64,000 nt of DNA, taken from the NCBI GenBank assembly GCA_963676565.1, contig OY781089.1, positions 2,592,001 to 2,656,000 on the forward strand, written 5' to 3'. The translations under genes and the position numbers were made by a program. Positions 8,531-22,306 of the stretch are shown here, one piece after another; position 1 is the stretch's first letter; each line of letters starts with the position of its first letter. Source of the stretch: Halarcobacter sp. Its GTDB lineage: Bacteria; Campylobacterota; Campylobacteria; Campylobacterales; Arcobacteraceae. The notes below the pieces were generated by a model. That model saw nothing but the letters and a program-made list of their open reading frames with translations. It ran no database searches and was not told the DNA's origin.

Positions 8531-8600
8531 TGTATATATACAAAGTAATACTATTTAAACACTTAATATTTTGTATAAATACAAAGTATTATGATATAAT
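8531..8600 (+). promoter_or_regulatory. hipBA-like promoter with two palindromic operators
   Basis: TGTATATATACA (8531-8542) and TTTGTATAAATACAAA (8570-8585), followed by extended -10 TGATATAAT (8592-8600). Confidence 0.6.
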
Positions 8601-8618
8601 ATTTCAAAAGGAGTTCTT

Positions 8619-8957
8619 ATGGATTTTAACTTATTAACAAATGAAGATATTATAAAAGAACTTGGTAAAAACTATGAAGAGTTAAGACTTCAAAAAAGAC
8701 TTTCTGATGATGATGTTCATAAAAAAGGTGGTGTTAGTATTGATGCCATCCAAAGACTAAAAAATGGTTCTAATATAAACTTATTAAATTTTATAAAGAT
8801 TTTAAGAGGACTTGGAGAGTTAGACAAGCTTCAAAAACTACTTGAAGTAAAAGAGGAGTTTAGTATTCAAGAAAAAGTAAAAAACACTAAACCCAAAAGA
8901 ATATTCAAATCTAAAAAAGATACCAATAGTGACTTTATTTGGGGAGAAGATAAATGA
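8619..8957 (+). CDS. XRE/HipB-like HTH antitoxin
   Basis: ELRLQKRLS...GGVSIDAIQRLKNG...LLNFIKILRGLG; ATGA overlap with the hipA-like gene. Confidence 0.75.
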   Translation: MDFNLLTNEDIIKELGKNYEELRLQKRLSDDDVHKKGGVSIDAIQRLKNGSNINLLNFIKILRGLGELDKLQKLLEVKEEFSIQEKVKNTKPKRIFKSKKDTNSDFIWGEDK

Positions 8958-10273
8958 GTAAAATAGTTGAAGTAAAATTATGGGGTACAACTATTGGATA
9001 TCTTGGTTACCCAAAAGATTCAAATATAGCGCAATTTGAGTATGACAAAAACTTTATGAAATCTAATATTTCACCCTCACCTTTACTGATGAATTATCCA
9101 CCTGACAAGTTTTATTTTGAAGATATTAGTTTTAGAACTTTTAAAGGAGTAGCTGGAGTTTTTGCGGATTCTTTGCCAGATAAATATGGGAATCAACTAA
9201 TCGATCAATTTATGGCAGAGAAAAAAATCCCCAAAGAAGATATAACAACTCTAGATAGATTATTATATGTGGGGAAAAGAAGTATTGGAGCTTTGGAATA
9301 TCATCCTTGTGAATTTGAAGATGATTTTGAAAAAAGTGCAAAAGCTTTAGATATATCTTTATTGTCTCAACTAGCTGAATTAGTAATTACAAAAAAAGAC
9401 AAACTAAATGATAAATTAAAAGATTCAAAAACAAAAAAAGAGGCACTTGATTTGATTAGAGTTGGTTCTAGCGCAGGAGGAGCAAGGGCAAAAGCACTTA
9501 TTGCAAAAGATGAAGATAAAAAGAATATATATATTGATGGAACAAACTTATATGAAGGGAACTATTCTTATTGGCTTTTAAAATTTGATTCATCTGCAAA
9601 TCAAGATAGGGATTCAAAAGACCCAAAAGGGATGACTAGAGTTGAATATATCTATTCCTTGTTTGCTAAAGAGTGTGAGATAGATATTCCTGAAACCTCA
9701 TATTTAGAAATAGATGATGATTTTCATTTTATGATAAAAAGATTTGATAGAGTTGTAGAAAATAAAAAAACCTCAAAACTACACTATATATCTTGGGCTG
9801 GACTATCTCATTATGATAGAGATACAACAGGGGCATACTCATACGAACAACTAATCTTAAACTTACGTCAACTAAACTTTGGACAAGAAGAGATTACAGA
9901 AATTTTTAAAAGAGCTGTTTTTAATATAGTAGGAAGAAACCAAGATGACCACACAAAAAACTTTGGATTTTTGATGAATAAAAAAGGAGAATGGAGTTTA
10001 TCCCCTGCTTTTGATATGACCTACTCTTTTGACCCATCTGGGACTTGGACGAAAGTTCATCAAATAAGATTAAATAAAAAGCAAGATAATTTTACAAAAG
10101 AAGATATTATTGCATTTGGGAAATATTGTAATCTAACTCAAATACAATCAACAAAAATCCTTGAAAAAACTATTGGGATATTTAAAAAATTTGAAAAACT
10201 TGCAGATGAATATAAGGTACCAATAAAAGTGAAAGATATCATCTCTAAAAATTTGAGAAGAGATTTAATTTAG
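8954..10273 (+). CDS. hipA: HipA family Ser/Thr kinase toxin
   Basis: DSLPDKYG N-terminal domain, SAGGARAKA, KRFDR, NQDDHTKNFGF, LSPAFD. Confidence 0.9.
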   Translation: MSKIVEVKLWGTTIGYLGYPKDSNIAQFEYDKNFMKSNISPSPLLMNYPPDKFYFEDISFRTFKGVAGVFADSLPDKYGNQLIDQFMAEKKIPKEDITTLDRLLYVGKRSIGALEYHPCEFEDDFEKSAKALDISLLSQLAELVITKKDKLNDKLKDSKTKKEALDLIRVGSSAGGARAKALIAKDEDKKNIYIDGTNLYEGNYSYWLLKFDSSANQDRDSKDPKGMTRVEYIYSLFAKECEIDIPETSYLEIDDDFHFMIKRFDRVVENKKTSKLHYISWAGLSHYDRDTTGAYSYEQLILNLRQLNFGQEEITEIFKRAVFNIVGRNQDDHTKNFGFLMNKKGEWSLSPAFDMTYSFDPSGTWTKVHQIRLNKKQDNFTKEDIIAFGKYCNLTQIQSTKILEKTIGIFKKFEKLADEYKVPIKVKDIISKNLRRDLI

Positions 10274-10870
10274 TACCTTATTTATATTAGATAAAGAAGC
10301 AACCTCTCCTGGCATTAGACTATCAATATGAATCTCACCAATTCTAATTCGAACAAGTCTTAATGTAGGGAATCCAACAGCAGCAGTCATTTTTCGAATC
10401 TGACGTTTCTTTCCTTCACAAATCGTAATAGATATCCAACTAGTAGGTCCATGTTTTGGATGACGAATATTTTTTCCTCGAGGTGGTAAATCTGGCTCAC
10501 CATCAATTGCAAATGCTTTACAAGGAAGAGTTAAATATTTGCTCCCACTTACAGTAATTTCAACACCCTTTTGGAGATTAGAAATTGCATCCTCTGTAAT
10601 CACACCATCAACTTGCACATAGTACTCTTTTTCTATACTTTTATTTCTAACTTTATGACTTGTCATACCATCAGTTGTAAGTAATAATAAACCTTCTGAG
10701 TCATGGTCTAACCTTCCAATAGCCATAGTATCCTCAGGAAAATCATAAAAGTCACCTAATAAGCTTTTATTTTTCATTTTTTCTTGCTTGAATTGACTTA
10801 AACACCCATATGGTTTAAATATTTTAAAGTGCTGGTGAGTTTGTTCTGATGTAGAGTTTTCATTTGGCAT
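10265..10870 (-). CDS. rluE: RsuA/RluE family pseudouridine synthase
   Basis: KPYGCLSQF, GRLDHDSEGLLLLT, EGKKRQIRKMTAAVGFPTLRLVR. Confidence 0.8.
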   Translation of the reverse strand: MPNENSTSEQTHQHFKIFKPYGCLSQFKQEKMKNKSLLGDFYDFPEDTMAIGRLDHDSEGLLLLTTDGMTSHKVRNKSIEKEYYVQVDGVITEDAISNLQKGVEITVSGSKYLTLPCKAFAIDGEPDLPPRGKNIRHPKHGPTSWISITICEGKKRQIRKMTAAVGFPTLRLVRIRIGEIHIDSLMPGEVASLSNINKVLN

Positions 10871-10926
10871 TAAAGATATCCTTTAGATTATGTGGAATTG
10901 TAACTTTTATTTTATAAAGTTGCGAT

Positions 10927-12207
10927 TTAATCTTTAATATCTTTTTTGTATACCTTTCCATTGAATTTTAATATAGATTTTTGGTTCGTTGTTATTACTT
11001 TAGCATCACATTCCCCATTCTTATTAACTTCATTTTTGGTTTCTGTAACCTTGCTTTTTATCAAAATATTAAAAAAGCCATTTGATTTTTGGTTTGACAT
11101 AATTAAAGTGTTTTTAGTATCTGTAAATTCACCAGAACAGTTACCGTTCCATTCACCAATGGCGTTCATCACGGAGTATTTATCAAGAATTTTTTTTAGT
11201 CTGTTGCCTGATTTGATAAAAAGAGACAAGGTTTCGCTTGTATAAGGATTAACTCTTGACATTCCCTGATAGCGTACTTTAACACCAAAAGCTCGAATCT
11301 TTTTATTAATAAAGTATCGCGCTGTATCTATACTGATTTTTCTAAGCATTATGGCATCTGAAACCCATTGGTTCGTTTGACTGCTTTCAAAGAATTTTTG
11401 TATTATTTTTCCAGTACGATTATCGGCAATAACAATATGACTGTTGAGGGCAAAATATTGTATTCCCTCTTCTACAATCTCTGGTATAACTATAATCACT
11501 TCATTTGGAGTTTGAGGGTTGGCTTTTGATACAATCAAATCTGTTTTTACTAATAACGGATCAAGACCTAATTCTTTTAAAACAGATAAAACTAATGTGA
11601 AATTTGATAAGGTGTCATTTAGTCTCTTTGAATTTGTCCTGTCAATCGTACCATCAAAATTAATAACAAATTCCTGTACTTCTATTTTTTTGACCAAATC
11701 CCAAGAAGTATGGTGGCTTGTGATAGCACGTTCACTTATTCTTGATTTTATTTGAGTCAGACCTTCAGCTATCTCGTCATAGACAATCCGCTGATAATCA
11801 ATAACATTGCCTTTTAAATCATAGTTTATCAAGGTAGATTCCATTTCATATTCACCCAATTTATAGGTAACCACCACCGTATAGAAGTTTTGAGACAAAG
11901 TTACTTTGTAAGAACTCACTGCTTTATACTTAGATTTTTCTTGATAGAAATCAGGATATATAGTTTCAATCTTCAAAGCGTGACTATCAATGGATTTAAA
12001 GTCAGCAACGTCAATAAAATCATCAAAGTTTGTGGTATCAACTACTGGCAGTTTTCTCTCTTTTAGAGTATTTATCACGTCTTTAAAATCAATAGATTTC
12101 TCTACTTGTTCTATTGCACCTTCCACTTGCTTTTCATCTTGTTTTTCTTGTCCAAAAGAATAAGAGAACAACAGCGATATAAGTATAAAAATTTGCATAT
12201 GTTTCAT
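10927..12207 (-). CDS. Secreted hypothetical protein
   Basis: 426-aa ORF with N-terminal signal peptide. Confidence 0.65.
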   Translation of the reverse strand: MKHMQIFILISLLFSYSFGQEKQDEKQVEGAIEQVEKSIDFKDVINTLKERKLPVVDTTNFDDFIDVADFKSIDSHALKIETIYPDFYQEKSKYKAVSSYKVTLSQNFYTVVVTYKLGEYEMESTLINYDLKGNVIDYQRIVYDEIAEGLTQIKSRISERAITSHHTSWDLVKKIEVQEFVINFDGTIDRTNSKRLNDTLSNFTLVLSVLKELGLDPLLVKTDLIVSKANPQTPNEVIIVIPEIVEEGIQYFALNSHIVIADNRTGKIIQKFFESSQTNQWVSDAIMLRKISIDTARYFINKKIRAFGVKVRYQGMSRVNPYTSETLSLFIKSGNRLKKILDKYSVMNAIGEWNGNCSGEFTDTKNTLIMSNQKSNGFFNILIKSKVTETKNEVNKNGECDAKVITTNQKSILKFNGKVYKKDIKD

Positions 12208-12209
12208 GA

Positions 12210-12596
12210 TCAGATCCAGTCTAAAGTTTTTTCAAGAAAATAGTGTAAGAAAGCTAAAATAACTAATATTAACAACATAGAAATTCCACGTTTTAAGAAC
12301 ATATACTTAGATAAGTTACATTTTTTTTTCAGATAAAAGAGATCAAAAAGTATAAATAGTATAGCTAAAATGGCTCCTATAATACCTCCCACAAAAAACA
12401 CTCCAAAAAAAAGCATTTTGGAATAAATAAAAGATAAGAAATTTGTTTCTTCTGGCGTTGGACCTGCAATCAAGTATGAAAGTAAATACATATAGCCAAT
12501 ACCTAGAATCAAGGCAATGACTGTCCAAAGGGCATACTCTAAAATGAGTTTTCCCACTTTATTGGATTGAACAACGTTTTTTTCGTTCGTCTTCAT
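12210..12596 (-). CDS. Hypothetical membrane protein (about 3 TM)
   Basis: Three hydrophobic segments; tightly coupled to neighbours. Confidence 0.6.
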   Translation of the reverse strand: MKTNEKNVVQSNKVGKLILEYALWTVIALILGIGYMYLLSYLIAGPTPEETNFLSFIYSKMLFFGVFFVGGIIGAILAILFILFDLFYLKKKCNLSKYMFLKRGISMLLILVILAFLHYFLEKTLDWI

Positions 12597-14145
12597 TGGG
12601 TATTCCTTTCATTTTGTCTAACAAGTCAGGATCGCTAAAGTCTAACTCTTGCTCAATATTGCAAATATAGATAGATGAATTTTTTTCATTACTTTCTTTT
12701 ACCCTAAAAAGGGTATTGGTTAATACCCAATGAGTATTTTTAAAAGTAATGTAGTGGTTAGCCTCGTTAAGTCCGCGATCAGGAAATGTTGTTTGAATTA
12801 AAAAGCCATTTTCTTCTGCTAATACATCAACAATTTGATTTCCACCATCTTCTGAAAAATTGGTACTTTTTAAAGCAAATCGGTATGCTCCATCTTTATT
12901 GATAAACAGTAATAACTCATCTTCTTGGTATGGAATTGAGCTTACTACTTTGTCCAAAGCATAGTCATTGTTGATATCAATGTCTCTAACAAAATAATTT
13001 TTATTGTTCAAGTAGTATGATATATCTTTACCTATAGGATTTTTCTTATTCTCTTCCACATTAAATTCATTTGCAAACAAATCATATATAATATGCATTT
13101 TGTGATTATTAAAGCTATGCGTAAACTTTTTGTCAAATTGTGGATGTTGTCCATCAAAGAGAAAAAACAAAACTGACTTTGCTTCTTTAAATTCCAAGGT
13201 ATTGATTAGATTATATCGCTGTTTTTTCTTGATATACTTTATAAATTTATCTTGAAAATAATTAACGGCATCAGCTTGCCATTTACCATTTTTTGCAATA
13301 TTAATGAGTTTTTTTTCATAGTTCTTATACTTTTCATTTGAAATCAACTCAAAAAAATAAGCAATATAAGCATTGCTTTCATTGTAAAGTTTGCTGGGGG
13401 AATCGTTGTACTCATTCCATCCAAAATAACTTACAAATTCTTGAAAACTATCAGGAAAGAGATTTAGAAAAAGTACCTCATTTTTTGTGGAGAACGCCAG
13501 CTTTATTTGAGCTATAGAAATACTGTTATCTAGCGGTTCTTCAACATCAGAAATTAAATCATTGTTATTGAACTTGCGATTGGGTTTATTAATCAAATTT
13601 CCCTCATTGAAGAAACTAAACTTTCCACACTCTAAAGTGACATTGACTTTACAGTTAGAATAATCAAATTCTGCCAACTTATACTTACTATACATACCTA
13701 ATTCTTCAGTGACCAAGCCACCTAGATCTTCTTCGTTTTCTAAAAAATATGCTGTACCTTCATCTTGAAAAACACTAAAAGGAAAAGCCTTAGAATACTT
13801 ATAAAATAAAATTGAATCTTCTTTTTGATAAGCTAGTTTCTTGCCTGTTGAAAACCCTTTTTTCAAGTGTTCTGTTACTTTTTCCCTAATTACTTGATGA
13901 AGAATACTCTGATCCTTTTCAGGATACTTTACTAAATAAAGATTAGGATAGACCTCGGATTGTATAAACATCATATTCTTAAAAAAGAAGTGGTTAATAA
14001 TCTGTACAGTAAGACCAATAACAAATAAAGCCAAAGCCACTCGTGACCTTTCTTTATTTTGTAAAATCCACTTTATTAATCTAATGGCAAAAAATAGTAA
14101 GCCAATACTCAATAGAAGAAACAAAATGATGAGGATTATTTCCAT
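12559..14145 (-). CDS. Membrane-anchored hypothetical protein
   Basis: 528-aa ORF with two N-terminal hydrophobic segments. Confidence 0.65.
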   Translation of the reverse strand: MEIILIILFLLLSIGLLFFAIRLIKWILQNKERSRVALALFVIGLTVQIINHFFFKNMMFIQSEVYPNLYLVKYPEKDQSILHQVIREKVTEHLKKGFSTGKKLAYQKEDSILFYKYSKAFPFSVFQDEGTAYFLENEEDLGGLVTEELGMYSKYKLAEFDYSNCKVNVTLECGKFSFFNEGNLINKPNRKFNNNDLISDVEEPLDNSISIAQIKLAFSTKNEVLFLNLFPDSFQEFVSYFGWNEYNDSPSKLYNESNAYIAYFFELISNEKYKNYEKKLINIAKNGKWQADAVNYFQDKFIKYIKKKQRYNLINTLEFKEAKSVLFFLFDGQHPQFDKKFTHSFNNHKMHIIYDLFANEFNVEENKKNPIGKDISYYLNNKNYFVRDIDINNDYALDKVVSSIPYQEDELLLFINKDGAYRFALKSTNFSEDGGNQIVDVLAEENGFLIQTTFPDRGLNEANHYITFKNTHWVLTNTLFRVKESNEKNSSIYICNIEQELDFSDPDLLDKMKGIPNEDERKKRCSIQ

Positions 14146-14179
14146 GAAGTTACATCCTTAGGGCACTGCAATCAATAAG

Positions 14180-14563
14180 CTAATACCATTTAGTCAAATA
14201 CTTGATACGAGCATTTGTCATTTCAATTTCGCACTCAAGTCTGGCTTCATTGCGTTGCATACCCCCACTTTGAAGTACATAAAATGCATCACAATTTTTT
14301 TTCTTGAATTCAAGCCAGCTACGTTGGCTAATAATCAAGCTTTGTTTCAATTCATTAGCATCAACTAAGGCTGCATCGGGTAATTTTCCCGTGTTTATGC
14401 TACTCATAATAGCTTTATAAATACGATTCAATTCAGCATCAGATGACTCTTGTTCAAGCTGTAGCTCACATAAAGAAGTAGGCAGACCACAACGTTCATC
14501 AATATCTTGTGCAAACAATTGGAAAGTCGTACAATAAAAAAATAGAACCAAGAACCTAATCAT
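14180..14563 (-). CDS. Lysozyme inhibitor LprI / DUF1311 family protein
   Basis: Signal peptide, SDAELNRIYK, SQRSWLEFKKKNC, CEIEMTNARI. Confidence 0.8.
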   Translation of the reverse strand: MIRFLVLFFYCTTFQLFAQDIDERCGLPTSLCELQLEQESSDAELNRIYKAIMSSINTGKLPDAALVDANELKQSLIISQRSWLEFKKKNCDAFYVLQSGGMQRNEARLECEIEMTNARIKYLTKWY

Positions 14564-14585
14564 TTAACTTTCCTTTTATTAAAAT

Positions 14586-14639
14586 ATATAACGTTTAAGT
14601 TGAAAAACATTTAGTAATAGTTAATAATAAATATTTTTA
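14586..14639 (-). repeat. Truncated attC (right half only)
   Basis: Minus strand: AAAAATATTTA...TAAATGTTTTT-CAACTTAAAC-GTTATAT; same right arm as the 70-bp attC sites, but R'' and its spacer are missing. Confidence 0.6.
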
Positions 14640-15050
14640 TTTAACTCCACATTTACTATCAAGTATTTTAGCTAAACTATCTCTTTTTTTATCTGCTTTC
14701 ATCAGTCTTTGATACTCTGATTCATCATTATTCTTTTTAGCTTCAACTTTTGCCATAAAAGATTGATACGAATATAATGAATCATACATAAATAATTTTC
14801 CATCGATTTTATCTATCTCTTTTGCTGCACATTTACAATATTCTAATTCTTTTTCATTTTTGGCTTGTTTTTCACAAGTGATTTTAAACATCTGTTTTGA
14901 TTTTTTAATTTGCCCACTTTTTAGCATCTGTTCATACATCTCTTGATTTGCTTTAACTTGATAAAACTCTTCAATATTCATAGATAAAATATTGTTAGCA
15001 AAACATTGTAATGATAAAAAAGATATAAGAATTAAATATTTGATGCCCAT
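14637..15050 (-). CDS. Secreted hypothetical protein (cassette gene)
   Basis: Signal peptide, Cys residues; followed by an attC remnant. Confidence 0.65.
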   Translation of the reverse strand: MGIKYLILISFLSLQCFANNILSMNIEEFYQVKANQEMYEQMLKSGQIKKSKQMFKITCEKQAKNEKELEYCKCAAKEIDKIDGKLFMYDSLYSYQSFMAKVEAKKNNDESEYQRLMKADKKRDSLAKILDSKCGVK

Positions 15051-15219
15051 TCATTTCCTTTTATTTTTTAGTTTATTTAACAATCATAGTATCTTTTTGA
15101 GACTTAAATAATACTCTTCAAAATAAAGCTTGTAAATATATTAAATAATTATTAATATTACTCCAAAATGAAGTTAATTAAAATCATTTTCTGCAATAAT
15201 TTTAAACTATTCTTTTGTA

Positions 15220-15278
15220 GTTTAACGTTTGAAATAAGCCAATAAATTTCCCGCATGGTAATTTATTGGCTGTTATAT
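15220..15278 (-). repeat. attC of the blaOXA cassette, left arm shortened (59 bp)
   Basis: ATATAAC-AGCCAATAAATTACC-ATGC-GGGAAATTTATTGGCT-TATTTCAAAC-GTTAAAC. Confidence 0.75.
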
Positions 15279-16028
15279 AATATTCTTAAATTTTAAAGCT
15301 TCCATTACAATTTGTTTTCTATATTTTAACTCTTCTTTTTTAATATCAGCATTTAAGGCAAAAAACCAAATGTTATTTTTAGTTTCAACATATCCTACAT
15401 ACCATCCTATTTTACCTGACCATCCTGATTTGGCTTTTATTATATAATCTTTTGTTTTTTCAACAGTTAATATTTTTTTTGTAATATCGATATATTTTTG
15501 TTGAAAGGGTAAATCATCTTTATATAATTTTTTGAGAAACTCTATTTGTTCAACTGCTGATATTTGTAGATCACCTTCTAGCCAAAAAGTAGATACATCT
15601 AAACCAGTTTTTTCATTACCGTAATCTATTTTTTTTAACCAATCTAAATATTTTTCATTTCCTATTTTTTTTGCAAATCTTTGATAACACCAAACGCATG
15701 ACATTGCAATAGCACTTTGTAAAGTTTGATCTTTATTCCATGGTTCATAAAATCTTTTTTTACCATCCCACTTAATAATTTCATATTCGTCTTTTATCAC
15801 TCTTTCTTCTAAAACAATAAGTGTATTTGGTATTTTAAAAGTTGATGCTGGAATATATCTTTTTATGGCTCTTGTATCGTTATGTATAAACTCTTCATTA
15901 TTTAGTGATGACAAAACAATTGTTCCATTGATTTTTGTTTTTTTAAAAATGTTTTCTAACTCTTTATCTTGTGCTAGTGCAAAATTGAACAAAATGTTTA
16001 TCAGTATAATTATTTTTACATTGTTCAT
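15273..16028 (-). CDS. blaOXA: Class D (OXA) beta-lactamase, 251 aa, cassette-borne
   Basis: STFK, SCV, YGN, FWL and KSG motifs; signal peptide from ATG 16028 with AGGGG RBS; stop codon lies inside the attC TAAC. Confidence 0.92.
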   Translation of the reverse strand: MNNVKIIILINILFNFALAQDKELENIFKKTKINGTIVLSSLNNEEFIHNDTRAIKRYIPASTFKIPNTLIVLEERVIKDEYEIIKWDGKKRFYEPWNKDQTLQSAIAMSCVWCYQRFAKKIGNEKYLDWLKKIDYGNEKTGLDVSTFWLEGDLQISAVEQIEFLKKLYKDDLPFQQKYIDITKKILTVEKTKDYIIKAKSGWSGKIGWYVGYVETKNNIWFFALNADIKKEELKYRKQIVMEALKFKNII

Positions 16029-16040
16029 TTTTCCCCTTTT

Positions 16041-16166
16041 ATATAACGCCCAGTTAAGGGGTGAAGCACGCAATGACCAAGCCTCTGCATAGCACATCAA
16101 CATCGAAATCCAACGCATAGCAAAAATGCCACGCGTGCTGAATCCCTCTTGAACTGTTTGTTATGG
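16041..16166 (-). repeat. attC, Vibrio-repeat (VCR/VXR)-like, 126 bp
   Basis: Minus strand CCATAACAAACAGTTCAAGAGGGATTCAGCACGC...GCGTGCTTCACCCCTTAACTGGGCGTTATAT. Confidence 0.9.
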
Positions 16167-16643
16167 CGCTCCACTCAACGTTAGCTCTTGTATATCAACT
16201 TGGTCTACTTCCCTGCCTAATATTAGCTTGTACTCGACTAAACGATGAACTGGGATAACTGGCAACTCGATACCTTGATAATCTTTAATAACTGATTCTG
16301 AGAAGTAAATTTCAAGCTGGTGCCAAGAGCCATCTTGACATGATTGTATCTTAGTATGTTCAGACAAACCGATTTCAATTTTTTGATTTTGGTAAACCAA
16401 TTGGAAATACTCTAGATCCCAACCATATTCGGCATAATGAGTTAACGGTTTGGATATGTATTTTGCTACATGCGATAGCACTTTGTCTGCGTCTGAGTTT
16501 CGAATATAAAGATCTATATCTGCGATTTCCCGACTTCCACCATGAATAGTTGCCGCTAATCCACCTACTATTTGATACTCCACAACCTCTGCATCTAAGA
16601 TCTCTTTGAGCCACTGCAAGGCTACTTTAACTTTATCACTCAT
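16161..16643 (-). CDS. Nucleotidyltransferase-fold protein (cassette gene)
   Basis: IVGGLA...REIADIDL motif; visibly more GC-rich than host genes; stop codon in attC R''. Confidence 0.7.
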   Translation of the reverse strand: MSDKVKVALQWLKEILDAEVVEYQIVGGLAATIHGGSREIADIDLYIRNSDADKVLSHVAKYISKPLTHYAEYGWDLEYFQLVYQNQKIEIGLSEHTKIQSCQDGSWHQLEIYFSESVIKDYQGIELPVIPVHRLVEYKLILGREVDQVDIQELTLSGAP

Positions 16644-16673
16644 CTAGTTCCTTTAGCTGAATTTTGCCTTGCG

Positions 16674-16733
16674 CCATAACGCCCCACACATGGGCGCAGC
16701 TTTGCTGCGTCCTTGTGCTGTGGCTTGTTAAGG
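16674..16733 (-). repeat. attC, 60 bp GC-rich (59-base-element size class)
   Basis: CCTTAACAAGCCACAGCACAAGGACGCAGC-AAA-GCTGCGCCCATGTGTGGGGCGTTATGG. Confidence 0.88.
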
Positions 16734-17069
16734 GTGCGCATCAGGTTTTGCAACAACCTTAAGACGATTTGTTTTAACCCAAACACCTGCATCCTCCTCT
16801 TTGCCACCATATATAATTTGAGAGAATCCATCATACTCACTGTAAATACCTACTCCATCTTTTGGAATTATAAATTTCCCTTTAATCGAGCATGATTCGT
16901 GCGGTGCTGAATAAAATTGTGCTCGCCCTTCACCAACAACTTCACCCATCCATACCCTGTGCCAGTATTTGGCTTTTGCTTTAACATCCAGAGCTTTGCA
17001 ATCTATGTCTTCATTGCTATAGGCATTAAAAGATAAAACTAATGTGAAAAGCGTAATGATCATTCTCAT
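16728..17069 (-). CDS. Secreted hypothetical protein (cassette gene)
   Basis: Signal peptide; stop codon in attC R''. Confidence 0.7.
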   Translation of the reverse strand: MRMIITLFTLVLSFNAYSNEDIDCKALDVKAKAKYWHRVWMGEVVGEGRAQFYSAPHESCSIKGKFIIPKDGVGIYSEYDGFSQIIYGGKEEDAGVWVKTNRLKVVAKPDAHP

Positions 17070-17076
17070 GCTAAAC

Positions 17077-17146
17077 CCTTAACGTTTGAGTCGAGAAATA
17101 TTTGAGCCGCTAAGGTCAAATATTTCTCTCCAATGATTTGTTATAT
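17077..17146 (-). repeat. attC, 70 bp AT-rich type
   Basis: ATATAACAAATCATTGGAGAGAAATATTTGACC-TTAGC-GGCTCAAATATTTCTCGACTCAAACGTTAAGG. Confidence 0.88.
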
Positions 17147-17550
17147 ACTAGTTTACTATTAATAATTTGGATTATTCCTTCAACATTATCCTTAAGTATA
17201 ATAGCTCGTTCAATAAATAAAGATACATCAGAATCAATTATATTTTCATCATCAATTAAAGTATTTTCAATTAGACCGGAAAAGTATGAGTGTATTTCAT
17301 GTATTAAACAATTTCTTTGATCTTTTAACATATTTAAAGCAGGAACAACATTCTTCAATGAATCATGTTTTTTTAATTTAAATATTAATCCACCTAATGT
17401 GCTTTCAATAAACTGTGAATTTTCATTATTTTCATCAAGAAATTTTTTAATTAAGCTTTCTAATTTTCCAGTAATTAAAATGACACGACCAAGTTCCATA
17501 CAAAATCTATCATTAGTATATAAAAGATTATAAAAATGTTTATTACTCAT
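17116..17550 (-). CDS. Hypothetical protein (cassette gene; reads into its attC)
   Basis: AGGAG RBS right after GTTATGC; C-terminal YNKSLERNI is encoded by the attC left arm. Confidence 0.7.
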   Translation of the reverse strand: MSNKHFYNLLYTNDRFCMELGRVILITGKLESLIKKFLDENNENSQFIESTLGGLIFKLKKHDSLKNVVPALNMLKDQRNCLIHEIHSYFSGLIENTLIDDENIIDSDVSLFIERAIILKDNVEGIIQIINSKLVYNKSLERNI

Positions 17551-17563
17551 TCAAACTCCTTAT

Positions 17564-17634
17564 GCATAACGTTTAAGGAGAGCAATATTTGACACAAGGG
17601 CGGGTCAAATATTGGTTCCTACGTTTTGTTAGTC
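17564..17634 (-). repeat. attC, 71 bp AT-rich type
   Basis: GACTAACAAAACGTAGGAACCAATATTTGAC-CCGCCCTTGT-GTCAAATATTGCTCTCCTTAAACGTTATGC. Confidence 0.88.
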
Positions 17635-18105
17635 ATTTAGTTGACTCGCTGATTCTTCTATCGTCTTGATAGGGTCTTCCATAAATTTACAGGCTTTTGA
17701 AACTTTTAAATCTTCAATTATCTCAGATAAGTTTGGTTGTAGAACTTTACTAGACTCTTCAGCATATAACAAACACTTTTCTTCATCTGCTATTGTAATG
17801 AAATTTTCCAAAATTTTTATATTGTCTTGTGCTGGAGAAAATTTAAGAACAACAGCTTCAAATTTTTCATCTGTTTTATAAATCTGTATTTGAGAACCCC
17901 AGTTATCGTCTGATTTAAATTCTTCAACATCACCCCAACTATTATTAATTGGTAATAAAGAACGTATTGAATTCATGAAATTTGTTGAGGGGTTTGAAAA
18001 CTCTTCCCAAGCAAAATAATCATCTAGCGCACTTTGAAAATCAGTTTTATGCTTTTCTACAAACTCTTTAGGAATGATTTCAATATTATATTGAAAAATT
18101 GCCAT
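17629..18105 (-). CDS. Hypothetical protein (first cassette gene)
   Basis: AGGA RBS after GTTAGTCA; stop codon in attC R''. Confidence 0.7.
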   Translation of the reverse strand: MAIFQYNIEIIPKEFVEKHKTDFQSALDDYFAWEEFSNPSTNFMNSIRSLLPINNSWGDVEEFKSDDNWGSQIQIYKTDEKFEAVVLKFSPAQDNIKILENFITIADEEKCLLYAEESSKVLQPNLSEIIEDLKVSKACKFMEDPIKTIEESASQLND

Positions 18106-18118
18106 TATTTATCCTAGT

Positions 18119-18140
18119 GACTAACTATTTATTGAATATA
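18119..18140 (-). other. attI-like (or attG-like) junction at the array start
   Basis: Minus strand TTCAAT-AAATA-GTTAGTC; GTTAGTCA complements TGACTAAC of the first cassette's attC; no hairpin upstream. Confidence 0.65.
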
Positions 18141-18323
18141 AATTATATAAATAAAGTACTTAAATACACTTATTTATTATATATTTATAATAATTATATA
18201 AAATAATATTATTAGATATATATTGTGAAGAATAAATTTATTAAAGTATACTTCCAATAACTTAAAAGAGCTTGTCACATTAGTTTGGAGTGATTACCTA
18301 ACTTTGTCATAAATAGGGGGGGG

Positions 18324-18350
18324 GTAAGGACGTTTGTCCTTACTTTTTTT
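18324..18350 (+). terminator. Intrinsic terminator, plus-strand oriented
   Basis: GTAAGGAC-GTTT-GTCCTTAC followed by T7, preceded by a G9 run. Confidence 0.7.
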
Positions 18351-19098
18351 ATGAGTATAATTGAATAAACTTATTTTCTTGAAACTCCATTAAAATGCAT
18401 TTTGAAACTTTTAATTTTTCTAGTAAATCTTCTGGAGATATAGGTAAACAATTAAGATTTATTTTTTTAGTAACATTCATAATATTTATAAACTTTTTAT
18501 CTGTGGTTAAAAAATAATCTAATCCGTTCACTTCTGCACTCCATAAATGAAAAGCATCAGGTAGCTGTTTATCTGATAAACCTGAACATATCTCTTTAAA
18601 TCTTTCTATATTGTTAATAGATTTTTTTGTTAAGTTGGGATAACTACTAGTATTTCTTACTAAATTCTTTATATCAGCATTATTTAAAGAAAGCAAAAAT
18701 TTACAAAAGTCAATAACATTTTTGTTATCTATAAATTCAAGAAAATCCATACTTTGAAAGTAGCTTCTATCAATCGCTGGTTCAATAAATTTAATTGAGA
18801 CATTTTTTAAAAGATATCCTCTCTCTTCTAGGAAAGTTTTTTTCCAACCTTCAAATTTAACTTCATCATAAGAGAAGAAATGTATCTTATTCTCATAAAC
18901 TAAATTTACAATTGTTGGAATACACATAATTTGATTCCTTTTCCATTGATTATTATCATCTGGTAATGGTTTTCTAACATAGCCTAAAATATCATTAGTA
19001 AGTACTTGATTACCCCATTTAAGTGTTTTTTGAGAAATTTGATACTGTAATGTTTCACTTAAACTAAAAATACAATTATCTAAAAAAACTTTTATCAA
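18349..19098 (-). CDS. PIN-like domain protein
   Basis: VFLDNCIF at N-terminus and DAFHLWSAEVNGLDYFLTTDKKF near the C-terminus. Confidence 0.6.
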   Translation of the reverse strand: MIKVFLDNCIFSLSETLQYQISQKTLKWGNQVLTNDILGYVRKPLPDDNNQWKRNQIMCIPTIVNLVYENKIHFFSYDEVKFEGWKKTFLEERGYLLKNVSIKFIEPAIDRSYFQSMDFLEFIDNKNVIDFCKFLLSLNNADIKNLVRNTSSYPNLTKKSINNIERFKEICSGLSDKQLPDAFHLWSAEVNGLDYFLTTDKKFINIMNVTKKINLNCLPISPEDLLEKLKVSKCILMEFQENKFIQLYS

Positions 19099-19136
19099 TT
19101 ATTGACCTCTTAAAATAGTAGTTTGATTAAAATATA

Positions 19137-19241
19137 TTTTGTCGTAAGCTTGGTGTAGATTTTACCGAAGTCTAGCGAAGGTGTACTACTCGTACATCGA
19201 AGCTAGAATTCGGTGAAAGATGCGCCGAAATTACGGCAAAA
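19137..19241. repeat. Long imperfect palindromic element after the guaA stop
   Basis: Nested arms TTTTGTCGTAA/TTACGGCAAAA, TTTTACCGAA/TTCGGTGAAA, TCTAGC/GCTAGA, TGTAC/GTACA. Confidence 0.7.
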
Positions 19242-19244
19242 AAA

Positions 19245-20780
19245 TTATTCCCACTCGATTGTTGCTGGTGGCTTAGAAGAGATATCATATACCACTCTAT
19301 TAATCCCATCAACTTCGTTAATAATTCTTCTAGAAATAGTTTCTAATACATCATGAGGGATATGTGCAAATGTAGCTGTCATACCATCTGTTGCTTCTAC
19401 AATTCTAACACATACAGTATTGTCATAAGTTCTATTATCACCCATAACACCAACTGATTTTACATTTAGAAGTACTGTAAATGCTTGCCATGTTTTATCA
19501 TATAATCCAGTTGCATGTAAAACATCTAGCATGATAACATCTGCTTTTCTAAGTAATTCTAAATCAGGTTTATTAACATCTCCCATCACTCTAATAGCAA
19601 GTCCAGGACCAGGGAAAGGATGTCTACCAATCATATCTTTTGGAAGTCCAAGTTCAAGTCCTAAAAGTCTTACTTCATCTTTGAAGATTTCTCTTAAAGG
19701 TTCAATTAACTCAAAAGTCATCCAATCTGGAAGTCCACCAACATTGTGATGTGACTTGATAGTTTTAGAAGGTCCTTTAACTGAAACAGACTCAATAACA
19801 TCTGTATAAAGTGTACCTTGTGCTAAGAACTCAATACCATCGTGTTTTTTTGCTTCTTTATCAAATACTTCAATAAAAGTTTCACCGATAATTTTTCTTT
19901 TTCTTTCAGGATCAGTTACTCCAGCTAATCTTTCAAGGAATAGTTCACTTGCATCAGCAGTAATAAGATTCACACCTCTTGCTTTAAACATAGCTTCAAC
20001 TTGTTCTCTTTCATTTGCTCTTAATAAACCATTATCAACAAATACAGGAATAAGTTGGTCTCCAATAGCTTCAGCTAAAAGTGTTGCAACAACAGAAGAG
20101 TCAACTCCTCCACTTACACCACATAATACTTTTTTATCTCCAACTTGGTCTTGGATTTTTTTGATTTGTTCTTTTGCAAATGAACCCATGTTCCATGTTG
20201 ATTCACAACCACAAACATGTTTTGCAAAGTTTTTAAGAATCTTAGCACCTTCAGCTGAGTGATAAACTTCTGGGTGAAATTGAAATGCATAAATATTTTC
20301 ATCTTCTTTTGCAATTGCTGCAAATGGAGAGTTTTCACTTGTTCCAATAACTTCAAAACCTTCTGCTAATTTGTCAACTTTATCTCCATGTGACATCCAA
20401 ACAGTTTGTCCATCAGTTGTGTCTTTGAAAATCGCACACTCTTTTTCAAAAGTAAGTTTTGCTTTCCCGTATTCATGATGATCTGCAGGGATTACTGAAC
20501 CACCATAAAATTGAGAGATAAGTTGCATACCATAACAAATACCCAAGATTGGAAGTCCAAGATTAAAAATCTCTTCATCAGGGTGATATGCATCTTGTGC
20601 ATATACTGAAGCAGGTCCACCACTTAAAATAATACCTTTTGGAGTTCTAGCTAAAATATCTTCGATTCTTTCACTATATGGTACAATCTCAGAGTAAACA
20701 CCAGCTTCTCTTAATTTTCTTGCGATAATTTGTGTATATTGACTACCAAAATCTAATACAACTATTGGTACATGTTTCAT
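19245..20780 (-). CDS. guaA: GMP synthase (glutamine-hydrolysing)
   Basis: [37 protein letters not shown]. Confidence 0.98.
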
Positions 20781-20877
20781 TAAATAGATTCCTTATTTTC
20801 TAATTAGTATCCGCGATTATAACTAAAGAGTAATTTAATATTGATTAATAGAAAAATAAGTGAGTAAAAGAAGAGAA

Positions 20878-20904
20878 TGTAAAAGTGCAAAAAGCACTTT
20901 TACA
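20878..20904. terminator. Hairpin after nhaD
   Basis: TGTAAAAGTGC-AAAAA-GCACTTTTACA. Confidence 0.55.
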
Positions 20905-20911
20905 AATAAGA

Positions 20912-22306
20912 TTATCCTACGTGATAAAATCCTAAGATTTCGTATTGAACATACCAAATAGTAACAGAAGCAATATATCCAATAAGGATAGTCCATGCAT
21001 ATTTCATATGTGAACCAAATGTATAAATACCATGAAGTTTACCCATAACTCCAACACCTGCTGCTGAACCAAATGAGATCAATGAACCACCAACACCCGC
21101 TGTAAGTGTTACTAACATCCATTGGTCAAGACCCATTTCAGGAGATGCTTTAAGTACTGCTGACATAACAGGAACGTTATCAACGATTGCAGATAAGAAA
21201 CCAACACCAATATTTGACCAAGTTGGTCCTAATACTGATGGGTCATAAACTACAACTGCTAATGCTAACCATCCAATAAAGTATAATGCACCAACTGCAG
21301 CTAAAATACCAAAGAAGAACATTAATGTATTATTTTCAATTTTTGCCATTGAATGGAAGATATTAAAGTGGTCTTTACCATGTTTTCTTTTTAAACCATA
21401 AGAATAAACTTTAAGTAAAGAAAGACCAAACATCATACCCCACATAGCTGGTAAATGTAATACTTGGTGAGACATAACAGCACAGAAAATTGTGAATACA
21501 CCAAGTCCCATTACTACTTTTGCACCCTCTGCCATTTGTGGTTTAAGCTCTTTTGATGCATCAAAATCAGGTTTTGTTTCTGGAACAAATTTAGAAAGGA
21601 TAAATGCAGTAATTAAATATCCACCAATAGAAGATGGGAATAAAAATAAGAAATCAGTAAATGTACCCTTACCTGCAGTCCAAGCCATAAGTGTAGTAAT
21701 ATCTCCAAATGGTGACCAAGCACCACCTGCATTTGCTGCAACAACAATATTAATTGCACCAGGTACTAAGAAGTCTTTTCTTGTTTTTTCAATTGTTATT
21801 AATACAGTTGATAAAATAAGAGCAGTTGTTAAGTTATCTGCAATTGGAGAGATAAAGAATGCCAAAATACCAGTTACCCAGAAAAGTTTTCTATATGTAT
21901 AACCCTTTGAAACTAGATTATATTTTAAGCTATCAAATACTCCCATATGGATTAATGACTCAATATAAGTCATAGCAACAAATAAGAAGAAGAAAATTCC
22001 AGCAATTTCTAAAATCAAGTGTTGCGCTTCAGTGTGCACCAACCCTAAATCTAGACCATTTAACGCATAATATAGCGCAACTAGAATAAACATAAACGTA
22101 CCAATAAATAGTGCAGGCTTTGCCTTATCAATTTCGTACTTCTCCTCAGCAGCTACGAAATAGTAACCTACCACAAAAATAAATAGACAAGCGAATCCTA
22201 CCCAAGTCATAGTTAAATCAGGTGCAACTTCTGCCGTACCAGAAGCTCCACTCGCTGCTAACAGCGATAAAGATGATAAAAATAACATCATCAACAGTTT
22301 TAACAT
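20912..22306 (-). CDS. nhaD: Na+/H+ antiporter NhaD
   Basis: ADNLTTAL, ANAGGAWSPFGDITT, SAIVDNVP, GGSLISFGSAAGV. Confidence 0.9.
   Translation of the reverse strand: MLKLLMMLFLSSLSLLAASGASGTAEVAPDLTMTWVGFACLFIFVVGYYFVAAEEKYEIDKAKPALFIGTFMFILVALYYALNGLDLGLVHTEAQHLILEIAGIFFFLFVAMTYIESLIHMGVFDSLKYNLVSKGYTYRKLFWVTGILAFFISPIADNLTTALILSTVLITIEKTRKDFLVPGAINIVVAANAGGAWSPFGDITTLMAWTAGKGTFTDFLFLFPSSIGGYLITAFILSKFVPETKPDFDASKELKPQMAEGAKVVMGLGVFTIFCAVMSHQVLHLPAMWGMMFGLSLLKVYSYGLKRKHGKDHFNIFHSMAKIENNTLMFFFGILAAVGALYFIGWLALAVVVYDPSVLGPTWSNIGVGFLSAIVDNVPVMSAVLKASPEMGLDQWMLVTLTAGVGGSLISFGSAAGVGVMGKLHGIYTFGSHMKYAWTILIGYIASVTIWYVQYEILGFYHVG

Follow-up and report, generated by a model that had tools for sequence, protein, structure and literature searches.

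A Vibrionaceae-type gene cassette in an integrase-less integron array of the Arcobacter family

In the present study, a window of 64,000 nucleotides (positions 2,592,001 to 2,656,000 of contig OY781089.1, assembly GCA_963676565.1) from Halarcobacter sp. was analysed, and we found in it an array of gene cassettes of mixed descent. We believe that this array is what is left of a sedentary integron of the Arcobacter family, which one cassette (D) would have entered from the cassette pool of the Vibrionaceae and another (C) from a different donor, and whose integrase has since been lost. The probability given to this reading is about 0.88.

Results

The host genome is 3.34 Mb in one contig with a GC content of 28.4%, and the proteins that are at least 90% identical to those of the cassettes and of the flanks in the window are named Arcobacter sp., Halarcobacter sp. 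and Arcobacter arenosus. The array lies on the minus strand; all cassettes are coded on it, and the attC sites are read on it as well. It begins with a putative attI, followed by six co-oriented cassettes designated A to F (Table 1). Four of the attC sites are AT-rich (the last of them degenerate), one is short and GC-rich, and one is of the Vibrio type. An earlier note, made from the letters of this DNA, had described three such architectures side by side, and the four sites that it named were all recovered within 1-3 nt of its coordinates: two AT-rich sites of 70-71 bp (attC_A and attC_B) with the common core AATATTTGAC...TCAAATATT, a GC-rich site of 60 bp (attC_C) and a site of 126 bp (attC_D) with the ends listed in Table 1. 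Two further AT-rich sites, attC_E and attC_F, lie outside the range of that note (16041..17634) and are absent from it.

Table 1. Features of the cassette array and of the adjoining island (positions within the window)
Feature	Position	Strand	Length	Description
Putative attI	18125..18192	-		Head of array; ends ...AATAGTTA; crossover between G18125 and T18124
Cassette A	17570..18124	-	555 nt	ORF 17629-18105, 158 aa, no family; attC_A 17564-17634
attC_A	17634-17564	-	71 nt	AT-rich type; GC 0.41
Cassette B	17083..17569	-	487 nt	ORF 17116-17550, 144 aa, no family; attC_B 17077-17146
attC_B	17146-17077	-	70 nt	AT-rich type; GC 0.34
Cassette C	16680..17082	-	403 nt	ORF 16728-17069, 113 aa, no family; attC_C 16674-16733
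attC_C	16733-16674	-	60 nt	GC 0.58
Cassette D	16047..16679	-	633 nt	ORF 16161-16643, 160 aa; attC_D 16041-16166, Vibrio-type
attC_D	16166-16041	-	126 nt	GC 0.47; ends TAACAAACAGTTCAAGAGGGA ... CCCCTTAACTGGGCGTTA
Cassette E	15226..16046	-	821 nt	Class D beta-lactamase ORF 15273-16028, 251 aa; attC_E 15220-15278
attC_E	15278-15220	-	59 nt	AT-rich type; left arm short by about 10 nt
Cassette F	14592..15225	-	634 nt	ORF 14637-15050, 137 aa; attC_F 14586-14626
attC_F	14626-14586	-	41 nt	Degenerate; native R' box CTTAAACGTTAT retained
Distal island	10921..14591	-		LprI-family ORF 14180-14563; three-gene block 12559-14145, 12210-12596, 10927-12207

In the inverse core sites of attC, R'' ends in AAC and R' starts with GTT, the consensus being RYYYAAC / GTTRRRY. 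All six sites start with ..TAAC and end with GTTA.., and the outer bases of their 7-mers match the consensus loosely. Each of the co-oriented ORFs has one such site at its 3' end. In four of the six cassettes the first bases are complementary to the own R'' over 8 (A), 9 (C), 10 (D) and 9 nt (E), and in B and F over the 5-nt core only; this cassette-specific complementarity exceeds chance. An attC is internally an imperfect palindrome and, as single-stranded DNA, folds with some bases left unpaired. When folded in this way, attC_A, attC_B, attC_C and attC_E gave z values of -7.2, -3.9, -3.5 and -4.4, with none of 200 shuffles as stable. The terminal arms of attC_D were paired in its best structure, which was no more stable than chance (z 0.0; 91 of 200 shuffles equal or better), and attC_F gave a z of -0.8 (44 of 200). 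With a nhmmer profile built from 12 native attCs, the sites B, A and E were found again, together with three clear sites and one marginal site elsewhere, at C1:160.7-163.6 kb. We also wrote a scanner that looked for attCs by paired TAAC...GTTA ends and by complementary arms, and gave it up, as it was at first too strict and then unspecific, scoring sites inside guaA like real attCs.

The element at 18125-18192 is regarded as a putative attI by homology and position. In the same-genus genome G419 a copy with 97% identity has the first cassette on one side and a divergent, intact integrase gene (intI) on the other, in G424 a copy lies 200 bp upstream of intI, and partial copies adjoin intI or its fragments in G403, G422 and G410. 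The host genome holds three copies of the element, the similarity of which ends directly after GTTA, and it was present in 17 of the 25 same-genus genomes, with up to 6 copies in a single one (the genome sets searched hold one genome per species). Similarly, sites of the attC_B family (90-94% identical) adjoin intact intI in the same-family genomes G275 and G268 and in G419; attC_B itself shares 94% identity with an attC of the G275 integron and 92-94% with those of G268, and attC_E is of the type found in both. Because the same attCs and attI adjoin intact integrases in genomes of the same genus and family, the AT-rich attC type is judged to be native to the host family, which the earlier note had thought probable.

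IntI scored above the cut-off in 7 of the 25 same-genus genomes, 5 others having fragments of it, and in 28 of the 401 sampled genomes of the phylum. The whole G419 protein could be aligned with Vibrio IntI4 (PDB 2A3V; 273.7 bits, E 1.8e-80), and by this alignment the IntI of the Arcobacteraceae is clearly related to it. A complete integron has, beside its array, an integrase gene with the extra domain specific to IntI. In the whole host genome no integron integrase was found, the best TIGR02249 match reaching 50.4 bits against a cut-off of 265, and no fragment of intI either; therefore, no capture takes place in cis at present. The position that intI has in G419 is occupied in the window by a 249-aa ORF without known family, which also occurs in G414, there with no array. 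A comparison of window positions 18191-19240 with the intI side of the integrons of relatives found no homology. The cassette promoter (Pc) of a complete integron lies upstream of attI. A scan of this AT-rich DNA for promoters and terminators gave 31 promoter-like sites, where 30.4 were expected in shuffles. In the terms of IntegronFinder, a cluster of attC sites without an integron integrase is a CALIN. Since the host genome is without an integron integrase, the array is such an integrase-less remnant. It resembles other CALINs in having at least two attCs in a row, co-oriented cassettes and no intI nearby or in the genome, and differs from them in that it is still headed by an attI, which can be recognised and is homologous to the one beside intI in congeners. 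As this attI has been retained, the array is to be seen as an integron minus its integrase and not as a stray fragment of an array.

Cassette D encodes a nucleotidyltransferase-like protein, annotated in the source as 'MazG-related'; among solved structures the nearest in sequence is no closer than TM1012 (E 0.012). The cassette lies about 1.4-2.1 kb downstream of attI. Its DNA is 94.7% identical over 641 nt to that of Vibrio sp. YIC-376 and V. hepatarius, and 88-92% identical to four further loci in three genomes, and the alignments to Vibrio begin and stop at the limits of the cassette. The protein is 97-98% identical to its Vibrio relatives, including 97% to a V. parahaemolyticus protein. 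A search with it yielded 179 relatives at E<=0.001 among 194 candidates; the organism names among the 120 relatives listed are all of marine Gammaproteobacteria, and the 32 genome loci carry titles of Gammaproteobacteria save one unclassified 'Bacterium sp.'. Campylobacterota were absent among the named relatives of those 120 and among the 32 loci, and none of the other 183 same-family genomes matched the gene (two candidates scored per genome; a lower bound). Best matches in Campylobacterota, which by the earlier note would have spoken against its inference, were not seen in these sets. In the ML tree, D falls into a clade of 8 rows with support 100/100, and the other 7 rows are all Vibrionaceae.

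The composition of D is also that of its Vibrio copies (GC 41.1% compared with 40.0-41.9%). Its ORF has a GC content of 0.387 and a GC3 of 0.323, more than 6 sd over the host mean, which was 0.150 +/- 0.026 in 1449 long ORFs with the 99th percentile at 0.22. Among 14 host-specific substitutions, 7 are GC->AT and 5 AT->GC, with no visible drift to the 28% GC of the host. Identity alone has no direction, and it could be asked whether the cassette arose in the Arcobacteraceae and spread from there to the Vibrionaceae. This reverse transfer has no specific support, and we regard it as highly improbable: no match in the 183 other same-family genomes stands against 179 relatives in marine Gammaproteobacteria, the copy in the window is nested within the diversity of the Vibrionaceae, its attC type is resident in Vibrio arrays and single in the host genome, and the GC3 of its ORF is far from that of the host.

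The Vibrio-like character that the earlier note had seen in the length and ends of the 126-bp attC was borne out. Vibrionaceae attCs of the VCR/VXR type measure about 120-130 nt and have conserved ends. attC_D is the sole site of its type in the host genome. It shares 72-91% identity with the neighbouring attCs of Vibrio and Oceanospirillum arrays (ten loci), and with one attC from a record of Vibrio vulnificus the identity is 95.9%. It might instead belong to a second native family of the Arcobacteraceae that resembles the Vibrio repeats by shared ancestry or convergence, in which case the gene would be an old resident. Of 184 same-family genomes, the host among them, 5 do have Vibrio-type attCs, the integrase of the family is related to IntI4 as described above, and attCs are reported to group by environment over host phylogeny in the parts of PMC8352920 and PMC8618304 that were available. 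Against this, the DNA identity of about 95% over ORF and attC between phyla is far beyond what shared ancestry would leave, the sites are rare (7 in the 184 genomes), and D has the same GC as its Vibrio copies. The Vibrio-type sites of G402 and G542 lie within native arrays behind ORFs with GC3 of 0.29 and 0.27, and with a partial site in G550 the upstream ORFs range over 0.27-0.29. A second native family is therefore a very unlikely origin for attC_D.

The foreign composition within an otherwise AT-rich genome could also raise the suspicion that the Vibrio-like DNA came from a chimeric assembly or from contamination. The likelihood of this is close to nil, as the two ends coincide to the base with crossover points of cassettes where R'' and R' are complementary over 10 nt, the assembly of 3.34 Mb consists of one contig, a 3636-nt contig of another run (X9) crosses D, C and attC_B, and gene calls on other contigs (the cluster-mate beta-lactamase ORFs P0146, P0149 and P0150) start within the same Vibrio-type attC and run from there into the beta-lactamase gene. 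Matches in RNA libraries covered small shares of the query; the one in X15 was to cassette D only, at about 96% identity and from another organism, and carries no information on expression in the host strain.

Overall, the sequence comparisons show that cassette D is from the cassette pool of the Vibrionaceae and was captured across phyla. The best Vibrio match, at about 95%, falls short of identity, so the actual donor strain would be unsampled. In a search for a vector, the phage collection gave a single weak attC-like match, and in the plasmid collection D was matched best (93.0%) by a linear, non-mobilizable Vibrio record of 217 kb resembling an array fragment. A vector is identified by neither of the two.

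Cassette C carries an ORF with a GC content of 0.386 and a GC3 of 0.289, and its protein is likely to be secreted, judging from the hydrophobic N-terminus. The word-indexed search returned its own cluster and one match of 55%, and the exhaustive HMMER search 169 remote relatives, the best of them 55% identical. Among the ten best clusters one was named, a distant DUF4431 protein of Pseudomonas tohonis. A metagenome scan yielded one relative in 240 candidate stretches, on a contig of 46.6% GC with no attC behind it. In the 183 other same-family genomes no match to C was seen (again two candidates scored per genome, a lower bound), and at 75 loci attC_C had no match beyond the 15 nt which are part of cassette D. 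Cassette C is considered foreign by its composition and the type of its attC. It had been noted earlier that the two genes with non-native attC looked more GC-rich than the host, and this holds for both ORFs (0.387 in D and 0.386 in C, compared with 0.284 for the genome), their GC3 also exceeding the 99th percentile. The gene flow from marine Gammaproteobacteria that had been proposed with it is supported for D by the DNA identity and the Vibrionaceae clade; for C, composition and attC type suggest a distant lineage at most.

The remaining cassettes are of native type. The ORF of A (GC3 0.201) has 95% DNA identity in the same-genus genome G406, and that of B has a GC3 of 0.117. The whole of cassette E (GC3 0.147) is 92% identical in G403, where the ORF of F is also found at 95%. 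The ORF of E matched NCBIfam NF012161 with 275.6 bits (cut-off 250), and in its translation STFK, SAV, YGN and KSG can be read, which we take to be the active-site motifs of class D beta-lactamases. None of the named OXA subfamilies reached its own cut-off, the best being OXA-198-like with 250.6 against 515.

Several observations show that the cassettes move as discrete units. D is found in Vibrio arrays, A, E and F occur singly at 92-95% identity in separate congeners (E and F in G403, A in G406), C is preceded by a different native attC in the P0139 contig, and the upstream neighbours of C and E differ in other contigs. Furthermore, one contig of run X2 joins 16042 to 16676, that is C directly to E, with exactly 633 nt skipped; its depth is 8, and on one side it extends over 21 nt only, under the 30-nt caution line of the tool. 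Parts of the array left uncovered in runs X2, X3 and X9 were not counted as absence.

Beyond the array lies the distal island, in which no attC was recognised (10921..14591), the genes have GC3 of 0.27-0.30, over the host 99th percentile, and LprI alone was matched by Pfam. In G414, window 8534-10920 is joined to 18198-21358 with only about 30 bp between, so that attI, array and distal genes (10921-18197) form one indel of 7.3 kb relative to that genome. This raises a different view of the last step, namely that another Arcobacter strain bearing intI captured D (and C), and that a segment of several cassettes then reached the host by homologous recombination or transformation between arrays. 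Such an import concerns the last step only and is compatible with the Vibrionaceae origin. The single indel is in line with it, as are the lack of intI and of intI fragments in the host genome, the C-D segment in the contig of another run, the D-E junction in the cluster-mate ORFs of other contigs, and the frequency in the genus of attI-headed arrays without adjacent intI, seen in the distribution of the attI element. On the other side, the joint of C to E without D and the varied upstream neighbours of C and E reveal events of single cassettes in the strain group, and such events need an integrase somewhere in the population. No result separates the import of a segment from vertical inheritance with loss of intI, and we hold the former tentatively, as a serious possibility that is not the favoured one.

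Discussion

Integron integrases recombine a circular cassette's attC, as a folded bottom strand, with attI or another attC, between the G and the TT of the core. The region is most probably the remnant of a sedentary chromosomal integron resident in the Arcobacter-like family, with a putative attI and six cassettes preserved and intI gone. Cassette D was formed in the superintegron pool of the Vibrionaceae, or long resided there, and probably entered the array of the Arcobacter lineage as a discrete 633-nt cassette by site-specific recombination of attC; cassette C would have entered likewise, from a more GC-rich donor. The integrase that catalysed these insertions was probably that of an ancestor or of a related strain, or acted in trans, and some vehicle would have brought D from one phylum to the other, where the cassette may be expressed or of use. 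The integrase would have been lost from the host genome at a later time, leaving the array static unless an integrase is supplied.

According to integron theory, cassettes are exchanged among co-habiting bacteria irrespective of phylogeny, and the capture of cassette D is a fresh example of this known process and no new mechanism. D is like the cassettes with VCR/VXR attCs of Vibrio superintegrons in the length class of its attC, in the ends, in the attC identity of 72-91% and in the gene family. It is unlike them in its isolated position among unrelated AT-rich attCs, in a host chromosome (Campylobacterota) with a GC content of 28%, in the different attI that heads the array, and in the absence of an integrase from the genome. 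In the available part of PMC8352920 (Ghaly et al. 2021), the resistance cassettes blaP3, blaP7, dfrA6 and qnrVC1 of mobile integrons were traced to Vibrionales by their attC type. As in those cases, the attC signature of the taxon that formed the cassette has been kept in a foreign integron; the difference is that the recipient here is a chromosomal array of another phylum and not a mobile class 1 integron. The 11 taxa modelled in that part of the study do not include Campylobacterota. 'The Natural History of Integrons' (Ghaly et al. 2021, PMC8618304), as far as its text was available, lists Campylobacterota among the phyla with sedentary chromosomal integrons and goes no further than the listing. 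Complete integrons do exist in the phylum, with 28 of 401 genomes over the IntI cut-off in the present analysis. Our literature search found no account of the Arcobacteraceae attC family, of its attI or of Vibrio-type cassettes there.

Well-resolved exchange between chromosomal arrays of different phyla is uncommon in the literature that we searched. In the present case one can identify the pool of the donor as well as the platform of the recipient, the limits of the cassette are exact to the base, the attC and attI types of the recipient family itself can be defined, and the same sample would, by one contig, contain forms with D and forms that lack it. In addition, a class D beta-lactamase circulates as a native cassette among environmental Arcobacter-like bacteria.

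In the Arcobacteraceae, several arrays headed by attI but without an integrase are found at conserved loci of the chromosome. It is conceivable, though in our view rather unlikely, that Arcobacteraceae and Vibrionaceae, although of different phyla, draw on one shared marine cassette pool, with one IntI serving such arrays in trans and accepting VCR-type attCs. That IntI could be resident or visiting, and would be clearly related to Vibrio IntIA. If this is true, arrays with an attI and no integrase would serve as live docking sites and would not be dead remnants. The IntI and attI of the Arcobacter family and the VCR-type attC offer a concrete pair with which it may be learned how the tolerance of an integrase for attC sites bounds the flow of cassettes.

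Results

Organization of the array

All genes of the cassette region lie on the minus strand, and each of the six units (cassettes A to F, with sites attC_A to attC_F) follows one plan, a single ORF closed by an imperfect palindrome between ..TAAC and GTTA.. The cassette limits were set by crossover at G/TT of every 3' core (the slash marks the crossover point).

Features of the integron array and the adjoining island (window coordinates)
Feature	Position	Strand	Description
Conserved head element	18192-18125	minus	68 nt, terminates ...AATAGTTA
Cassette A	18124-17570	minus	555 nt; attC 71 nt, GC 0.41
Cassette B	17569-17083	minus	487 nt; attC 70 nt, GC 0.34
Cassette C	17082-16680	minus	403 nt; attC 60 nt, GC 0.58
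Cassette D	16679-16047	minus	633 nt; attC 126 nt, GC 0.47
Cassette E	16046-15226	minus	821 nt; attC 59 nt, GC 0.31
Cassette E gene	within 15226-16046	minus	intact class D beta-lactamase, 251 aa
Cassette F	15225-14592	minus	634 nt; degenerate attC 41 nt, GC 0.17
Distal island part	10921-14591	minus	LprI-family gene and three-gene block (528, 128, 426 aa)

The first bases of cassettes A, C, D and E are complementary to their own R'' over 8, 9, 10 and 9 nt, respectively, which is the mark of a circularising unit; in B and F this complementarity is limited to the 5-nt core. As single-stranded DNA, attC_A, B, C and E fold more stably than 200 of 200 shuffles (z -7.2, -3.9, -3.5 and -4.4). The fold of attC_F does not beat its 200 shuffles (z -0.8), and that of attC_D is no better than shuffles (z 0.0, 91/200 equally stable), its terminal arms being paired in the best structure. 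Because of the complementarity in A, C, D and E and the folds of A, B, C and E, the site pattern is not due to chance. The four sites listed in the earlier note are attC_A to attC_D, with positions matched almost to the base, and attC_E and attC_F are additional to its list. Its observation of mosaic attC types was borne out by a six-site array of native (AT-rich, host-family), GC-rich and Vibrio-type attCs.

Origin of cassette D

Sequence comparison supports a Vibrionaceae cassette pool as the origin of cassette D. The encoded 160-aa protein shares 97% identity with one from V. parahaemolyticus. Among 194 candidate relatives, 179 passed E<=0.001, and wherever the 120 listed entries gave an organism name, it was that of a marine Gammaproteobacterium; Vibrio was the most frequent, and Photobacterium, Thaumasiovibrio, Marinomonas, Oceanospirillum, Halomonas and others also occurred. 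A genome scan with D gave 32 loci, all Gammaproteobacteria by title except one unclassified 'Bacterium sp.'. In nucleotide alignments, the 641 nt of window 16684-16044 share 94.7% identity with Vibrio sp. YIC-376 and V. hepatarius HF70, and identity to four more loci (three genomes) was 88-92%; these alignments begin at G/TTATGGCGC and end at GGGCG/TTA, that is, at the cassette limits. The window copy is 93-94% identical to the YIC-376 and HF70 copies, no more distant than the Vibrio copies among themselves (87-96%), a range that excludes two near-identical copies within one genome. In the maximum-likelihood tree (32 rows), D falls in a clade of eight with support of 100/100, the rest of which is Vibrio, Photobacterium and Salinivibrio. 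Furthermore, this genome has no second site like attC_D, which shares 72-91% identity with other attCs in the compared Vibrio and Oceanospirillum arrays and 95.9% with an attC in a V. vulnificus record.

The GC content of cassette D is 41.1%, compared with 40.0-41.9% in the Vibrio copies, and its 14 private substitutions (7 GC to AT, 5 AT to GC) have no AT bias; therefore, its residence has been too short for drift towards 28% GC. The D protein matched nucleotidyltransferase families below threshold in all cases (PF10706, E 0.026; solved structure TM1012, E 0.012), and it contains a G-G...D-x-D pattern, typical of the nucleotidyltransferase fold.

Host, base composition and cassette C

The host genome is a single contig of 3,340,668 bases with 28.4% GC. 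Among proteins that share 90% identity or more with those encoded in the cassettes and flanks of the window, the named sources are Arcobacter sp., Halarcobacter sp. and Arcobacter arenosus; therefore, the host is an Arcobacter-like member of Campylobacterota. GC3 of 1449 long host ORFs was 0.150 +/- 0.026 (99th percentile 0.22). ORF D (0.323) and ORF C (0.289) are far beyond this range, ORF A (0.201) is slightly high, and ORFs B (0.117), E (0.147) and F (0.174) are host-typical, as is the neighbouring guaA (0.135).

Cassette C is compositionally foreign. Its attC (58% GC) resembles none of the other compared attCs, its protein relatives are metagenomic with at most 55% identity, and the single metagenome locus recovered with such a relative has no attC. 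Neither the C gene nor the D gene was matched in any of 183 other same-family genomes (two candidates scored per genome). The earlier proposal of a Vibrio-like cassette is thus supported for D, whose Vibrio matches begin and end at the cassette limits and whose company in the clade is Vibrionaceae only. The accompanying observation, that the two genes with non-native attC are GC-richer than the host, stands for both D and C, and its reading as gene flow from marine Gammaproteobacteria is supported for D.

Cassettes as mobile units

Three proteins of the beta-lactamase 90% cluster on other contigs (P0146, P0149, P0150) have gene calls that start inside the same Vibrio-type attC, and their N-termini match the window translation of attC_D; a fourth (P0151) starts in a native-looking attC instead. 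In one further genome (P0139), cassette C sits after a different, E-type native attC. We also compared Logan contigs of four public sequencing runs with the array. In run X9, a 3636-nt contig covers D, C and attC_B. In run X2, D-bearing contigs have a depth of 4-5, and one 489-nt contig (depth 8) joins 16042 to 16676, with exactly 633 nt skipped and 9 nt common at the joint. This is the array without D, seen in a single contig with 21 nt on one side, which is under the 30-nt caution line.

Run X15, an RNA library of another organism, yielded a 648-nt contig on 16043-16675 whose sequence is cassette D in circularly permuted form (~96% identity, the joint going back 633). An excised circle, a tandem copy or a loop of the assembly graph across the near-identical attC ends could each account for it.

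Native integron platform

No integron integrase was found in the whole genome, the top TIGR02249 match having 50.4 bits against a cut-off of 265. A 417-aa open frame at 44520-45113 (minus strand), with a weak tyrosine-recombinase match, was rejected as an integron integrase at 28.3 bits to the IntI model, far under the cut-off. IntI above cut-off occurs in 28 of the 401 genomes sampled from the phylum and in 7 of 25 same-genus genomes, with fragments in 5 others. The intact intI genes of G275 and G268 (same family) and G419 (same genus) are adjoined by arrays of the same attC sequence family, with 90-94% identity to attC_B and further members matching the attC_E and attC_A types. By this homology the AT-rich attCs count as native to the host family, as does the head element by the evidence below.

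In G419, the head element is present at 97% identity precisely between the first cassette, whose R'' is likewise complementary to the junction, and the divergent intI. G424 has another copy, 200 bp upstream of its intI, and in G403, G422 and G410 partial copies adjoin intI or its fragments. Because of these copies, the head element is read as the putative attI of this integron lineage, by homology and position. Thus, with a putative attI and native attCs but no integrase, the array is an integron deprived of its integrase gene, a CALIN (attC cluster lacking integron integrase) retaining its attI.

The attI element is multi-copy, with up to 6 copies in one genome and presence in 17 of 25 same-genus genomes, the majority of copies having no adjacent intI; this suggests attI-headed satellite arrays. 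This genome has three, at window 18125-18192, C1:164338 and C1:2659039 (C1, its own contig). After the third, ~3 kb past the window end, no native attC was recognised among the ORFs. The second (164338-164401) belongs to another integrase-less array, located outside the window at C1:160150-164461, with three clear native attCs, one marginal match (E 0.25) and a foreign cassette (136-aa ORF, GC3 0.47, then a short GC-rich attC). Between attI and a 249-aa ORF, a G-run, an 8-bp hairpin (GTAAGGAC / GTCCTTAC) and a T-run at 18317-18345 look like a plus-strand terminator, though no plus-strand gene lies upstream; the automated promoter/terminator scan did not list this element.

Beta-lactamase cassette E

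The E protein scored 275.6 bits with NF012161 (cut-off 250) and reached no named OXA subfamily cut-off, the best being OXA-198-like (250.6 against 515). The entire cassette is 92% identical in same-genus G403, a cluster mate is named 'Arcobacter sp.', and its GC3 is host-like and its attC native. From these comparisons, cassette E appears to be resident in the Arcobacter pool. Its attC_E is shorter than the most closely related sites of G275 and G268 by ~10 nt of the left arm, missing from the stretch that separates R'' from the left stem; as a speculation, it may be a crippled site fixing the beta-lactamase cassette in place.

Locus and flanks

In G414 (same genus), window 8534-10920 is joined to 18198-21358 with ~30 bp between; therefore, window 10921-18197 is one 7.3-kb indel, containing attI, the six cassettes, the LprI-family gene and the three-gene block. 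In G416 the position beside guaA is occupied by a different array, and in G542 (another genus) an array ends beside a homologue of the pseudouridine synthase gene flanking the island here. The locus is therefore an integron site that is both old and variable. Within the distal part, no attC was recognised between the genes. The three-gene block had no Pfam match, has GC3 of 0.27-0.30 (above the host 99th percentile) and is absent from G414, and the LprI gene has a 95% identical copy in G417. At the island boundary, 8619-10273 (plus strand) encodes an HTH protein together with a HipA-like kinase (Couple_hipA and HipA_C). They form a HipBA-type toxin-antitoxin pair, which is conserved in both G414 and G416.

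Discussion

Integrase-mediated capture is the account with most support. The folded attC of a circular cassette would recombine with attI or another attC at G/TT, catalysed by an integrase of the family's own type; that of G419 can be aligned over its full length with Vibrio IntI4 (PDB 2A3V, 273.7 bits). There is no integrase here, so capture would have taken place in an ancestor or related strain, or by an integrase supplied in trans, and the integrase gene would have been lost afterwards. Alongside such capture, and compatible with it, homologous recombination may have brought in a segment of an array as the last step.

Vibrio-type attCs recur in the family. A search of 184 same-family genomes with attC_D found 7 sites, spread over 5 genomes (this one counted) and 3 of 22 genera. 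Those of G402 and G542 close cassettes with ORF GC3 of 0.29 and 0.27, in arrays also carrying other, non-Vibrio-type attCs, and the G402 cassette has R''/R' complementarity of 10 nt.

Assigning a cassette to its source taxon from the type of its attC is an established approach (PMC8352920). Of the 11 taxa modelled in that study, those named in the passages considered here do not include Campylobacterota, the phylum of the present recipient. A review lists Campylobacterota among the integron-bearing phyla, in the part cited here (PMC8618304). In the searched collection of open-access main texts, we found no paper that deals with the attC family of Arcobacteraceae, with its attI or with cassettes of Vibrio type therein. 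The mechanism itself is not new; the present array is a new, well-resolved case of a known process, cassette capture.
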